Assembly (NCBI RefSeq): GCF_053078305.1
Contig: NZ_CP166879.1
DNA length: 64,000 bases
Reading direction: 5' to 3' (one strand)
Part shown: piece by piece, positions 48,728-56,213 of the stretch
Layout of the letters: each line of letters begins with the position of its first letter
Numbering within the stretch: position 1 is the stretch's first letter
Notes under the pieces: generated by a model
The model's input: only the letters and a program-made list of their open reading frames with translations
The model's database searches: none
What the model was told of the DNA's origin: nothing
Made by a program: the position numbers and the translations under genes

Positions 48728-49315
48728 ATGCCCAAATTGGGGATGCAGTCGATCCGGCGCAGACAACTGATCGACGCCACACTGGAAGCAATAAATGAAG
48801 TGGGCATGCACGATGCAACGATCGCGCAGATCGCCAGCCGTGCAGGCGTTTCTACGGGGATCATCAGCCACTATTTCAGGGACAAAAATGGTCTGCTGGA
48901 AGCAACCATGCGCGATATCACCAGTCAGCTGCGTGACGCGGTTTTGAATCGATTACATGCACTTCCGCAGGGCAGTGCAGAGCAGCGATTACAGGCGATT
49001 GTTGGCGGAAACTTCGATGAAACGCAGGTGAGCAGTGCGGCGATGAAAGCCTGGCTGGCGTTCTGGGCCAGCAGTATGCATCAGCCGATGCTCTATCGTT
49101 TACAGCAGGTCAGCAGCCGCCGCTTGCTGTCGAATCTGGTGAGCGAGTTTCGCCGCGAATTGCCGCGCCACCAGGCACAGGAAGCGGGCTACGGCCTTGC
49201 CGCGCTGATTGACGGATTATGGCTGCGCGCGGCACTGAGCGGCAAACCGCTGGATAAACCTCTCGCACACTCGCTGACCCGTCACTTTATTACTCAGCAT
49301 TTACCCACCGATTAA
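48728..49315 (+). CDS. betI: TetR-family repressor of bet genes
   Basis: [36 protein letters not shown]...; divergent from betT. Confidence 0.95.
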
Positions 49316-49328
49316 CCGAGGAGACGTG

Positions 49329-50801
49329 ATGTCCCGAATGGCAGAACAGCAGCTTTATATACATGGTGGTTATACCTCCGCCACCAGCGGTCGCACCTTC
49401 GAGACCATTAACCCGGCCAACGGTAACGTGCTGGCGACCGTGCAGGCCGCCGGGCGTGAGGATGTCGATCGCGCCGTGAAGAGTGCCCAACAGGGGCAAA
49501 AAATCTGGGCGGCGATGACCGCGATGGAACGCTCGCGTATTCTGCGTCGGGCCGTTGATATTCTGCGTGAACGCAATGACGAACTCGCAAAACTGGAAAC
49601 CCTCGACACCGGAAAAGCATATTCGGAAACCTCAACCGTCGATATCGTTACCGGTGCGGACGTGCTGGAGTACTACGCCGGGCTGATCCCGGCGCTGGAA
49701 GGCAGCCAGATCCCGTTGCGTGAGACGTCATTTGTTTATACCCGCCGCGAACCGCTGGGCGTGGTGGCGGGGATTGGCGCATGGAACTACCCGATCCAGA
49801 TTGCCCTGTGGAAATCCGCCCCGGCGCTGGCGGCAGGCAACGCAATGATTTTCAAACCGAGCGAAGTCACCCCGCTTACCGCGTTAAAGCTGGCTGAAAT
49901 TTACAGCGAAGCGGGCCTGCCGGACGGCGTATTTAACGTGTTGCCGGGCGTGGGCGCGGAGACCGGGCAATATCTGACCGAGCATCCGGGCATTGCCAAA
50001 GTGTCATTTACCGGCGGTGTCGCCAGCGGCAAAAAAGTGATGGCTAACTCGGCGGCCTCTTCCCTGAAAGAAGTGACCATGGAACTGGGCGGTAAATCAC
50101 CGCTGATCGTTTTCGATGATGCGGATCTCGATCTCGCCGCAGATATCGCCATGATGGCAAACTTCTTCAGCTCCGGTCAGGTGTGTACCAATGGCACCCG
50201 CGTCTTCGTTCCGGCGAAATGCAAAGCCGCATTTGAGCAGAAAATTCTGGCGCGCGTTGAGCGCATTCGCGCGGGCGACGTTTTCGATCCGCAAACTAAC
50301 TTCGGCCCGCTGGTCAGCTTCCCGCATCGCGATAACGTGCTGCGCTATATCGCCAAAGGCAAAGAGGAAGGCGCGCGCGTACTGTGCGGCGGCGATGTAC
50401 TGAAAGGCGATGGCCTCGATAACGGCGCATGGGTCGCGCCGACTGTGTTCACCGATTGCAGCGACGAAATGACCATTGTGCGCGAAGAGATCTTCGGGCC
50501 GGTGATGTCCATTCTGACCTACGAGTCGGAAGAGGAAGTCATTCGCCGCGCTAACGATACCGACTACAGCCTGGCGGCGGGCATCGTGACGGCGGACCTG
50601 AACCGCGCGCATCGCGTCATTCATCAGCTGGAAGCGGGTATTTGCTGGATCAACACCTGGGGCGAATCCCCGGCAGAGATGCCCGTTGGCGGCTACAAAC
50701 ACTCCGGCATTGGTCGCGAGAACGGCGTGATGACGCTCCAGAGTTACACCCAGGTGAAGTCCATCCAGGTTGAGATGGCTAAATTCCAGTCCATATTCTA
50801 A
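49329..50801 (+). CDS. betB: Betaine aldehyde dehydrogenase
   Basis: [32 protein letters not shown]...; ALDH motifs ([18 protein letters not shown]). Confidence 0.97.
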
Positions 50802-50814
50802 CCAGGAGGTTTAT

Positions 50815-52503
50815 TTGCAATTTGACTACATCATTATTGGTGCCGGCTCAGCCGGCAACGTTCTCGCTACCCGTCTGACTGAAGATCCGAATACCTCCGT
50901 GCTGCTGCTTGAAGCGGGCGGCCCGGACTATCGCTTTGACTTCCGCACCCAGATGCCCGCTGCCCTGGCATTCCCGCTACAGGGTAAACGCTACAACTGG
51001 GCTTACGAGACGGAACCTGAACCGTTTATGAATAACCGTCGCATGGAGTGCGGACGCGGTAAAGGCCTGGGTGGATCGTCGCTGATCAACGGCATGTGCT
51101 ACATCCGTGGCAACGCGATGGATCTCGACAACTGGGCAAAAGAACCCGGTCTGGAGAACTGGAGCTATCTCGATTGCCTGCCCTACTACCGCAAGGCCGA
51201 GACCCGCGACGTGGGCGAGAACGACTACCACGGCGGCGACGGCCTGGTGAGCGTCACCACCTCCAAACCCGGCGTCAATCCGCTGTTTGAAGCGATGATT
51301 GAAGCGGGCGTGCAGGCGGGCTACCCGCGCACGGACGATCTCAACGGTTATCAGCAGGAAGGTTTTGGTCCGATGGATCGCACCGTCACGCCGCAGGGCC
51401 GTCGCGCCAGCACCGCGCGTGGCTATCTCGATCAGGCCAAATCGCGTCCTAACCTGACCATTCGTACTCACGCTATGACCGATCACATCATTTTTGACGG
51501 CAAACGCGCGGTGGGCGTCGAGTGGCAGGAAGGCGACAGCACCATTCCAACCCGCGCGACAGCGAATAAAGAGGTGCTGTTATGTGCAGGTGCGATCGCC
51601 TCTCCGCAGATCCTGCAACGTTCCGGCGTGGGTAGCGCTGAACTGCTGGCGGAGTTTGATATTCCGCTGGTGCATGATTTACCCGGCGTCGGCGAAAATC
51701 TTCAGGATCACCTGGAGATGTACCTGCAATATGAGTGCAAAGAACCGGTTTCCCTCTACCCTGCCCTGCAGTGGTGGAATCAGCCGAAAATCGGTGCGGA
51801 GTGGCTGTTTGGCGGCACCGGCGTTGGTGCCAGCAACCACTTTGAAGCAGGCGGATTTATTCGCAGCCGAGAGGAATTTGCGTGGCCGAATATTCAGTAC
51901 CATTTCCTGCCAGTAGCGATTAACTATAACGGCTCGAATGCAGTGAAAGAGCACGGCTTCCAGTGCCACGTCGGATCGATGCGCTCGCCAAGCCGTGGGC
52001 ATGTGCGGATTAAATCCCGCGACCCGCACCAGCATCCGGCGATTCTGTTTAACTACATGTCGCACGAGCAGGACTGGCAGGAGTTCCGCGACGCAATTCG
52101 CATCACCCGCGAGATCATGCATCAACCGGCGCTGGATCAGTATCGTGGCCGCGAAATCAGCCCCGGCACGGAATGTCAGACGGATGAGCAGCTCGATGAG
52201 TTCGTGCGTAATCACGCCGAAACCGCGTTTCATCCGTGCGGTACCTGCAAAATGGGCTACGACGAGATGTCCGTGGTTGACGGCGAAGGCCGCGTGCATG
52301 GGCTGGAAGGCCTGCGCGTGGTGGATGCGTCAATTATACCGCAGATTATCACCGGGAATTTGAACGCCACGACAATTATGATTGGCGAGAAAATAGCGGA
52401 CATGATTCGTGGACAGGAAGCGTTGCCGAGGAGCACGGCGGGATATTTTGTGGCAAATGGGATGCCGGTGAGAGCGAAAAAAATGAGTCGTGATTTGAAC
52501 TGA
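50815..52503 (+). CDS. betA: Choline dehydrogenase (GMC oxidoreductase)
   Basis: ...[23 protein letters not shown]...; AGGAGG at 50804-50809 positions a TTG codon at 50815; the in-frame ATG at 50770 lies inside betB. Confidence 0.93.
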
Positions 52504-53569
52504 CTCAAGAACCGATCAGATTGAGAGTTACCGTTCCAGGTATGGGGACAGAATCGTTATATAAAACATAGGGGTAACTCTCATGCTTCATAGTGACAAC
52601 CTCGCCAGCAAATTCTAAGCGGACTCGTTCAATCTGGCTGATGAAGGTGCTATGAATGCACTGATAAACCGCAGGTGAAATGCCACTCAGCTTAAGAATT
52701 ACGCCGCTAATGTTCCTTGCTATGGTTACCTGTTCATTCCCGCTCACGGTTAGCATGTACGAAAAGGGTTCTTGTAACGAGTACAAAAATAAGTCAGACC
52801 AAAACCACATGGAGCTTTAAACACGGTTCGTATAATTTATTAGCAGCGATTTATTTTTACTCTTCTTTAATTAATCATCATGCTTAAATATTTTTTAGCA
52901 CAAGATTATCGCTTCGCTAACATTTTATTTTACATTCATCATCAATTGATAATAAAAAATTGTTAATAATTTATTGCAAAAAACAAAAAGTGTTGGAATA
53001 CTCTCCATCAAATGAATACATAATAAACAAATTGAGATATACAAAAAGTAAAAACCATTTAAATGAATATTTTTAATTTATGAGCAGAACCCATTAACAA
53101 TGATTTACTAACCACCAGAAAAGTAAAGAACACCTTGCAATAATATGTATTTATAAATTCATATCATTGATATTAAACCAATCTTACTTTCTACCCTCCA
53201 ACTTTATGCATCAAAAAAAACAAAAGTAAAATCAATTAGATACACAACAAGGCAATCTCACAGGAAATGATGTTAAATATCTCAAAACTAATAAAAAATT
53301 ACTAAAATATTAGACGTAACACACATCCCACACGACCTGTCACTCATAGTTTTAATATTTATTTTTTCACATCATAGTAGATAAAAATACGCATTAAAAA
53401 TGACTTGTAGAAAAGCTGCACAATAAATAGTTCATATTTAGTCTGTTGCGTAGAACTACTATTCAAAAAATCTTATTAATGAGATAATGAGATTACATCG
53501 ATAACGTTCTGATGGCAGGCATACTTATCTGGGTGTGCCTCTCTTTTTTACAACTGTACACGGTGGCGT

Positions 53570-54133
53570 ATGACGAGAAAATATCTCACACAGGATGAAG
53601 TCTACAGGCTGATGGATGCAGCCCAGAGCATGTCCTTTCCTGAAAGAAATCGCTGTCTAATTATGATGGCTTTCATTCACGGTTTTAGGGCCAGTGAACT
53701 TCTTGATTTACGTTTATCCGATATTGATGCATCAGGAAAACAACTTAATATTCGGCGTATTAAAAATGGTTTCTCGACGACACATCCTCTTCTTCCTGAT
53801 GAATATAATTTGATCAAGTTGTGGCTTAAGCAGAGGAAGTTAATTGAAAACGGAGTTGAAGGAGACTGGCTTTTTCTCTCCCGGAAACGCCGCCCTATCA
53901 GCAGACAACATTTTTTTTCTATCATTCGTGAGGCTGGAAAACGTGCAGGATTAGCTGTAAAAGCACATCCTCATATGTTACGTCATGCCTGTGGTTTTGC
54001 TCTGGCTGACAATGGTGTCGATACCCGACTACTCCAGGATTATCTGGGTCATCGAAATATCCAGCATACTGTCAGATACACAGCCAGTAATGCTGCTCGA
54101 TTTAAAGGGGTGTGGAAAAAAAAACCTCGTTAA
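53570..54133 (+). CDS. FimB/FimE-family tyrosine site-specific recombinase
   Basis: 187 aa; strong similarity to remembered FimB/FimE blocks (FIHGFRASE, FSTTHPLL, HPHMLRHACGFALADNGVDTRLLQDYLGHRNIQHTVRYTASNAARF); preceded by ~760 bp of AT-rich ORF-free DNA. Possibly ipuA-like. Confidence 0.88.
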   Translation: MTRKYLTQDEVYRLMDAAQSMSFPERNRCLIMMAFIHGFRASELLDLRLSDIDASGKQLNIRRIKNGFSTTHPLLPDEYNLIKLWLKQRKLIENGVEGDWLFLSRKRRPISRQHFFSIIREAGKRAGLAVKAHPHMLRHACGFALADNGVDTRLLQDYLGHRNIQHTVRYTASNAARFKGVWKKKPR

Positions 54134-54145
54134 AACAGTACCTTC

Positions 54146-54423
54146 TGATTCAAAATGTCAGATTCCTACGTTTTCCTCAATTCTTCCATAAAAAAACAGC
54201 CCATTCAATTAAATAAAACACATAACATGTTGATATTTCTCGCTAAAGTAAAATAACCCCATGATTTGAAATGATTAACCACCAAGGTCATACCAGTGAT
54301 TAACTTTCGCTCATATTGTTAAATAACACAAAATTAAAAACAATAAAAATCAAACAAATTAGATTTATATTCCAAGAAAATTAAATATTCAGGCTATTAA
54401 ACCAAACCTGACATTTTGAATCA
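54146..54423. promoter_or_regulatory. Candidate invertible DNA switch (fimS-like) bounded by 16-bp perfect inverted repeats
   Basis: TGATTCAAAATGTCAG at 54146-54161 and its exact reverse complement CTGACATTTTGAATCA at 54408-54423, flanking 246 bp of AT-rich DNA between the recombinase and the LuxR-type regulator. Confidence 0.65.
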
Positions 54424-54462
54424 AAATGTCAGGTTTTGTAGCAATGGCGTGGACGAGTCTGA

Positions 54463-55257
54463 ATGAAGAAGCCTCTGGTTATTATCAGTGCCTGTCAGTT
54501 CACCAGGCTGGCACTGGAGTCTCTCATCCCAGCGGACAGGTATATCGTGCGGGTGTACAGCAACGTCACTACAGAGGTTGAATTCGTTTTAAAAACCTCC
54601 TGTGGCTACCTGTTGGCTGATATCCCTTCGCTTCCTTCGGGGGAGTTAGTTCTTCTGGCTTGTCTTGTCCGCTTGCGGAGTGATGCCGGGCAATGGCAGG
54701 TCTGCCTGACCGGTGACTCCGACTGGTCCGATAATGCTCCTGCTGCAAGTCTGTATAACGGCTTCCCACATATCGGCACCATGCTGACAGCGAGTCGTTA
54801 TCAGAATCAAATTATCCGCTGGTTACTACGTCCTTTACCCGGCGATATGAGTGATTTCTGGCTCCTGACTGCACGGGAGTTAAGCGTGCTTAAGATTCTG
54901 ATGCAGGGCATGAGTTTCAGTGAGATTGCCCGTTATGAACAACGCAGTTCAAAGACCCTGCATGCGATTGCCACACGGGCTTTAATGAAACTTGGACTGG
55001 GAACACTGAGCGATTTCAGGCTGCTCTATACGGGATGCGGTGACAGCAGAGTGAAACGGAATATACGGCTACATGCAAAATATATCGGACAACATTCCGC
55101 TCATCGACTCACTCAGTATGTGCAGAACATGGTATCCGGAATCCTTTATCCAGAGAAAGTTGCCGTTGGTGAATCAATAAATTCTGACGCCATTTCCGGA
55201 AAAGTACTTTCCGGACAAAGAAAAAATATATCTAAAAAAAGACCAGGATTGTTATGA
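54463..55257 (+). CDS. LuxR-type HTH transcriptional regulator
   Basis: 264 aa; HTH LTARELSVLKILMQGMSFSEIARYEQRSSKTLHAIATRALMKLG; starts 40 bp after the right inverted repeat. Possibly ipuR-like. Confidence 0.8.
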   Translation: MKKPLVIISACQFTRLALESLIPADRYIVRVYSNVTTEVEFVLKTSCGYLLADIPSLPSGELVLLACLVRLRSDAGQWQVCLTGDSDWSDNAPAASLYNGFPHIGTMLTASRYQNQIIRWLLRPLPGDMSDFWLLTARELSVLKILMQGMSFSEIARYEQRSSKTLHAIATRALMKLGLGTLSDFRLLYTGCGDSRVKRNIRLHAKYIGQHSAHRLTQYVQNMVSGILYPEKVAVGESINSDAISGKVLSGQRKNISKKRPGLL

Positions 55258-55410
55258 CACAGCAGCGTTGTTACTACCACCCACTGCGGCGCATACGGAC
55301 TCGCTACAGTGTAGGAGCCAAAATATTTCTACTGTTCTGGGCTGCAGGATTGGGAGGCACGCTGTACAGCCTGTACAGCGTGCTGGCGTACTGACATCTG
55401 TGAGGGAAGG

Positions 55411-56172
55411 ATGCGTTTCGTTCTTTTCTGTCCCTCAGGAATTGTACCAGCGCAGTTCGCAGCTCTATCAACCGGTTCTGTCGGCAATGTTACCTGCATC
55501 AGAACAGAAGAGGAGTTACGCAATAAATTGCGGCACAGGCCACAGAATGTCGTGATATCGGCAGGGCGACCTGCCGAATGCGCTGAAATGTGGTTCCGAT
55601 TTTATCGGGATCACTCATTCGTGGTGGTGTTGTGCGTCGCGCCCTTTTTTCTGCCACCGGATGTGAGTATTTCTGGCGTTCTCAAAAACCTGAGGTTACT
55701 GAAACCAGGAATGTCAGTAGAGCATGTCATCAGTATTGCAAATACCTCTGGTGGGTTTTCAGGGCTGAAACATGCAGAAATTTTGCCAGTTATGGACAGT
55801 TACTCTGTCTTTATGAAAGAGGTGAATAACCGCACAAAGACAATCGTCATGTCAGAACGCTTCCCGGAAAAGCAAAAGAAGGTGTTGTCGTTGCTTCTTG
55901 CCGGACACAGCTGGGAATACAGTGCGCAGTTTCTCAAAACGGGGATAAGACAGATATGGCTTGCCGAGCAGTCGCTAAAAAAGCGTTGGGGAATACCGGA
56001 CAGCATGTCATTGCGGGAAGCCCTGCTGCTGAGCAGCAATAAATTTCACGGTGATGGAAATGCATTGGAAAAAACGAATGCCATGACATTGCGTGAAAAC
56101 GGAAATACCAACAGGTATTCCGTGGTGGTAAATGCAGGGACGCAGGTTTTATCTCTGCATAAATATAAATAA
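55411..56172 (+). CDS. Second, divergent LuxR-like regulator
   Basis: 253 aa; degenerate LuxR-type HTH near the C-terminus (EKQKKVLSLLLAGHSWEYSAQFLKTGIRQIWLAEQSLKKRWGIP); no intact response-regulator phosphoacceptor signature recognised. Confidence 0.6.
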   Translation: MRFVLFCPSGIVPAQFAALSTGSVGNVTCIRTEEELRNKLRHRPQNVVISAGRPAECAEMWFRFYRDHSFVVVLCVAPFFLPPDVSISGVLKNLRLLKPGMSVEHVISIANTSGGFSGLKHAEILPVMDSYSVFMKEVNNRTKTIVMSERFPEKQKKVLSLLLAGHSWEYSAQFLKTGIRQIWLAEQSLKKRWGIPDSMSLREALLLSSNKFHGDGNALEKTNAMTLRENGNTNRYSVVVNAGTQVLSLHKYK

Positions 56173-56213
56173 GTGGGAAATTGAAATTAGTTACCAGAAT
56201 GGAGAATTTCTTC

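Follow-up and report, generated by a model that had tools for sequence, protein, structure and literature searches.

UUG is one of the three canonical start codons of Escherichia coli, where it initiates approximately 3% of genes, is decoded as methionine by the initiator tRNA, and supports 10-100% of the output obtained with AUG (10.1101/063800). Genes with a UUG start are enriched for strong Shine-Dalgarno (SD) sequences (PMC5622118). The closest described counterpart of the gene analyzed here is betA of E. coli K-12 MG1655 (b0311, NP_414845.1), whose coding sequence occupies positions 325577..327247 of NC_000913.3 on the minus strand and has a TTG codon as its RefSeq start at 327247. In the K-12 strain HMS174, the RefSeq start of betA is likewise TTG. 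The paper by Lamark et al. from 1991 is said to be the original report of the bet sequence. Full-text searches of the literature, in which "betA" is inseparable from "beta", found no published statement that E. coli betA starts at TTG.

Initiation at the K-12 betA start has been mapped by INRI-seq, a cell-free method that locates initiation complexes arrested by retapamulin along a synthetic transcriptome of E. coli K-12 (PMC9825163). The annotated betA start at 327247 was detected in five of five replicates (104.8, 89.4, 84.6, 69.7, and 91.3 CPM; Table S2 in PMC9825163), and the same table gives 0 reads at betA for Ribo-RET in vivo, presumably because betA is silent in the medium used, without choline or osmotic induction. 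No alternative betA start is listed in Table S3 of that study (PMC9825163).

The bet locus and the betA reading frame

We analyzed a 64,000-nt stretch of DNA from RefSeq assembly GCF_053078305.1 (contig NZ_CP166879.1), referred to below as the window, with positions counted from its first letter. The bet genes of the window are colinear with the K-12 bet locus: betT lies on the minus strand and is followed by betI (ATG at 48728), betB (ATG at 49329), and betA. The betaine-aldehyde dehydrogenase gene betB occupies 49329..50801 on the plus strand according to the RefSeq coordinates transferred from K-12, and its TAA stop codon (50799..50801, plus strand) is located 13 nt before the betA start. 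The betI-betB (49313-49331) and betB-betA (50799-50817) junctions are built alike, each consisting of TAA, CC, a 6-nt SD, 5 nt, and the start codon, with a 13-nt gap in both cases; the first of them reads TAA-CC-GAGGAG-ACGTG-ATG. An in-frame GTG directly precedes the annotated betB ATG. For K-12 betB, an alternative in-frame ATG at +9 has been reported by INRI-seq (PMC9825163).

The betA coding sequence extends over 50815..52503 on the plus strand and comprises 562 codons, from a TTG start to a TGA stop at 52501-52503; the RefSeq betA of K-12 maps to window position 50815. The encoded protein matched the NCBIfam equivalog TIGR01810 with 1027.1 bits (cutoff 732.1) over profile positions 1-532 of 532, NF002550 with 997 bits (cutoff 605), and the Pfam domains GMC_oxred_N (PF00732, E = 3e-63) and GMC_oxred_C (PF05199, E = 3.6e-41). 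The betA product is thereby predicted to be the choline dehydrogenase BetA, a GMC oxidoreductase, with a putative choline-oxidizing activity that is taken from the equivalog-level match only.

On its upstream side, the betA frame is closed by an in-frame TGA at 50755..50757 (plus strand), as read from the window sequence. After this stop, the frame contains only two canonical start candidates, TTG at 50770 and TTG at 50815, and direct reading of the open stretch upstream of betA revealed no in-frame ATG or GTG. The initial annotation of the window had placed the betA start at a TTG codon behind AGGAGG (50804-50809) and a 5-nt spacer, followed by Q-F-D-Y, and direct reading bears out both the coordinates and the motif. 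It had also described position 50770 as the only in-frame ATG, which is a misreading: positions 50770-50772 are TTG, in the betA frame and 45 nt upstream of the start. The closest ATG (50775-50777) lies 40 nt upstream of TTG 50815, out of the betA frame, and encodes a Met residue of betB.

The TTG (UUG) initiation codon of betA (50815..50817, plus strand) has the same identity and context as the annotated b0311 start in MG1655. It is preceded by AGGAGG (50804-50809) and the 5-nt spacer tttat (50810-50814) and is followed by the codons CAA TTT GAC TAC ATC ATT ATT GGT GCC GGC, of which the first four encode Q-F-D-Y. The SD sequence AGGAGG(T) (50804..50810, plus strand) begins 2 nt after the betB TAA and has 7 nt complementary to the 3' tail of 16S rRNA. 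Its duplex energy with ACCUCCUUA is -11.0 kcal/mol, which places it at the top of the bet operon (-8.9 for betB and -6.0 for betI), and its GGAGG is invariant in a 12-genus alignment.

The motif AGGAGG-N4-9-TTG was observed twice in the window compared to 1.93 occurrences expected, which is no rarer than chance, and the motif count was therefore dropped as evidence. The weight of the AGGAGG/TTG arrangement comes from its location at the point where the homology to BetA begins, not from the motif itself. Profile position 1 of TIGR01810 aligns three residues past TTG 50815, the match to NF002550 runs from one residue past it, and the N-terminal GxGxxG FAD-binding motif of BetA is present as GAGSAG at residues 9-14 counting from TTG. 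Judged by these profiles and by the orthologue starts described below, the BetA family homology appears to begin at TTG 50815 and not before it.

The betA 3' end and downstream region

At its 3' end (52477-52503), the window betA carries a run of seven A residues (A7), compared to A6 in K-12, MG1655, and PapRG-06-5. The extra A bypasses the K-12 TGA and adds six C-terminal residues, resulting in a protein of 562 aa versus 556 aa. The A7 allele is also present in AR_0085 and in O103:H2 strain 12009, both of which have the longer coding sequence of 1689 nt in their RefSeq annotation, and the 91 nt of the window at the betA 3' end have an exact match in eleven records. The A7 run is a homopolymer length polymorphism of natural origin, not an obvious error.

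A segment of approximately 6 kb directly downstream of betA (52593-58584) is absent from K-12, where betA is followed by ykgH. An open reading frame at 53570-54133 corresponds by position to ipbA (hbiF / fimX), which encodes a tyrosine-type DNA invertase. Further on, hyxR is expected from the synteny with AR_0085 and PapRG-06-5.

The start site in K-12 and the E. coli population

The segment ccatattctaaccaggaggtttatTTGcaatttgactac is identical between the window and the K-12 strains HMS174 and MG1655. Within the wider population of E. coli complete genomes, the locus was present in 5,179 of 5,426 genomes, which yielded 5,183 records. The 60 nt at window positions 50786-50845 showed 100% identity in 5,107 of the 5,183 records. 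A 32-nt core consisting of the SD, the spacer, the TTG, and five codons was found in 5,181 records and was exact in 5,180 of 5,183, so that this start site is nearly fixed in E. coli. Neither the core with ATG in place of TTG nor the core with GTG in that place had a match among the E. coli complete genomes. The closest relative of the window allele was found in strain PapRG-06-5 (99.3%).

The initial annotation had assumed, with some doubt, an ATG start in K-12 and had accordingly suspected a start-codon variant in the window. The comparison contradicts this suspicion, as the SD-TTG sequences of MG1655 and HMS174 are identical to that of the window and have TTG as the annotated start. A sequencing error at 50815, which the initial annotation had raised as an objection to its own call, is excluded by the identity of 5,180 independent records. 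Altogether, the sequence comparisons indicate that the TTG start of betA is ordinary: it is the start already annotated in K-12, and virtually all E. coli genomes have it.

The betA construct used in INRI-seq begins at -30 and matches the window from there through the first codons, so that the upstream TTG at -45 lies outside it. The arrested initiation complex was thus detected on K-12 sequence identical to that of the window, and the experimental support for the TTG start comes entirely from this in vitro system. The searched part of the TRAINSPOTTER N-terminomics supplement contained no entry for betA, b0311, or P17444 and no BetA N-terminal peptide.

Orthologues of betA in other genera

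We further compared the betA start among orthologous loci, using one genome per species and obtaining at least 80 loci; within the genus Escherichia the comparison covered E. coli. Among the 80 loci listed, the codon homologous to 50815 was ATG in 34, TTG in 11, and GTG in 1, and the other 34 loci had their start codon 1-4 codons upstream (33 ATG and 1 TTG). Among the matches listed, TTG was found at the homologous codon in Pseudocitrobacter, several Enterobacter, Klebsiella oxytoca, Citrobacter sp. R56, two metagenome-assembled genomes (MAGs), and one Pseudomonas. ATG was found there in the listed matches from Trabulsiella, Pantoea, Kosakonia, Rahnella, Xenorhabdus, Providencia, and others, and GTG in that from Serratia plymuthica. 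The listed matches from Pseudomonas, Stenotrophomonas, and Burkholderia mostly had ATG 2-4 codons upstream.

The mean SD energy was -10.6 kcal/mol for the TTG-start orthologues versus -7.8 kcal/mol for the ATG-start orthologues, with 11 of the 13 TTG cases belonging to one clade and thus not being phylogenetically independent. This difference is suggestive of stronger SDs in the orthologues that start with TTG.

Several non-ATG betA starts were observed outside the Escherichia-Enterobacter clade, namely TTG in Pseudomonas sp. JUb42 (L030, 2501) and in a Stutzerimonas stutzeri MAG (L079, 2498) and GTG in Serratia plymuthica (L032, 2501). Non-ATG starts appear to have arisen independently outside this clade. 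The start codon of betA seems to be evolutionarily labile, whereas the start position seems to be fixed.

Predicted mRNA structure and alternative explanations

In the minimum-energy fold of positions 50745-50865 (-33.5 kcal/mol, z = -1.70), the GGAGG and UUG of betA are paired with betB codons, among them CCAUCC at 50761-50766. The corresponding hypothetical hairpin spans 50751..50817 (plus strand), and in this predicted fold the last betB codons would pair with the betA SD and start codon. The unpaired probability of the SD-to-start segment is 0.09 in the window compared to 0.41 with the left arm shuffled, and none of 30 shuffles gave a value as low.

Such pairing would be compatible with a tuning device, in which BetA could be synthesized only when betB is translated, owing to the weak TTG codon and to an SD masked by the end of betB; if true, the aldehyde-producing enzyme would never outrun the aldehyde-consuming one. 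The predicted hairpin and the low unpaired probability of the SD-to-start segment are in line with this model, but the z-score of the fold is only -1.70, and no compensatory base-pair changes were found in a 12-sequence alignment (92% identical). Retention of TTG across several genera could likewise point to a tuned start; however, masking of the SD was not predicted in E. cloacae, K. oxytoca, and several other orthologues, including ones that start with TTG, and TTG may persist simply because only two of its nine single-base neighbors are good start codons. The left arm of the hairpin lies within coding sequence, which accounts for its conservation with no need of a structure. The 13-nt gap to betB, repeated with the same geometry at the betI-betB junction, would also fit the model, whereas in the in vitro INRI-seq experiments the signal per transcript was higher at the TTG site devoid of the left arm than at the betB ATG. 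On balance, we consider that a tuning function of this kind is unlikely. We give slightly less credence still to the proposal that UUG and the masked SD form a conserved coupling device, which would tie BetA to betB translation and thereby limit toxic betaine aldehyde; a device of this sort would explain why TTG has been kept across Escherichia, Enterobacter, Klebsiella, and Citrobacter.

Initiation at the upstream in-frame TTG inside betB (50770..50772, plus strand) would produce a BetA protein with 15 extra N-terminal residues and is very improbable. This TTG comes first among the start codons of the mechanical open reading frame and is kept in most close relatives, although it is constrained there anyway as betB coding sequence. 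It is essentially devoid of an SD (-3.8 kcal/mol versus -11.0 kcal/mol at TTG 50815), the 15-residue extension has no match to the BetA or GMC profiles, and RefSeq does not use this codon as a betA start. The orthologues contradict it as well: many of the listed loci have an in-frame stop 3-45 nt upstream of the start, so that no other start is possible. The in-frame stop is located at -15 in Trabulsiella and at -3 to -18 in many other genera. In K. oxytoca (L009) and Enterobacter sp. JUb54 (L012), a 1-nt indel in the SD-start spacer places a TGA in frame at -45, and therefore TTG is the sole possible start in these two genomes. The upstream TTG was consequently rejected as the betA start. A downstream start was rejected separately; the first in-frame GTG is codon 29, its use would delete the FAD-binding motif, and Table S3 of the INRI-seq study includes no such alternative.

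The possibility that TTG 50815 arose in this strain alone by mutation of an ancestral ATG, or reflects a sequencing error, had in its favor an uncertain assumption of ATG in K-12 and the ATG found at this position in some other genera, but it is negligible and is refuted by the identity with K-12 (TTG in both MG1655 and HMS174) and with the population (an exact core in 5,180/5,183 E. coli records, and ATG or GTG in none), with TTG being present also in Enterobacter, Klebsiella, Citrobacter, and Pseudocitrobacter.

Discussion

Based on these results, we concluded with high confidence that betA, the final gene in betIBA, is translated from TTG 50815, an ordinary start that had already been annotated. 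Initiation at this codon, as proposed in the initial annotation, is backed by the RefSeq annotation, the orthologues, the family profiles, and the published in vitro initiation mapping. In the most plausible course of initiation, the 7-nt SD (AGGAGGU), which starts 2 nt past the betB stop, would position the 30S subunit with the UUG codon, 5 nt downstream, in the P site. The initiator fMet-tRNA would then read UUG as a near-cognate codon, giving a protein that starts, three residues ahead of the first FAD-binding strand, with Met-Gln-Phe-Asp-Tyr; fMet is accordingly the residue expected at the BetA N-terminus in vivo. Across the 13-nt gap, which together with an SD close to the betB stop has the layout of a coupled gene pair, ribosomes that finish betB would probably feed betA initiation by translational coupling. 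The strong SD would probably offset the weaker UUG codon.

The betA start of the window was called correctly at TTG, which represents neither a mutation nor an error, and the significance of this result extends little beyond correct annotation. The gene illustrates neatly how a non-ATG start can be fixed in one species and common to several genera, with ATG or GTG found elsewhere at the same position. The combination of TTG with AGGAGG in betA agrees with the known association between UUG starts and strong SDs.

Compared with betA of MG1655, the window has an identical betB end, SD, spacer, TTG, and first codons, the same annotated TTG start, and the same betT / betI-betB-betA order, and its allele is approximately 98% identical over the betB-betA junction region. 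The ATG-start orthologues of Trabulsiella, Pantoea, Kosakonia, Rahnella, Xenorhabdus, and Providencia use the same homologous codon, located two residues before F/Y-D-Y-I-I-I-G and directly after betB, but differ from the window betA in having ATG instead of TTG and SDs that are weaker on average. With the canonical UUG-initiated genes of E. coli, the window betA shares a near-cognate UUG codon read by the initiator tRNA and a strong SD at optimal spacing; its SD, with a 7-nt match, is at the strong end for such genes, and otherwise nothing distinguishes betA from them.
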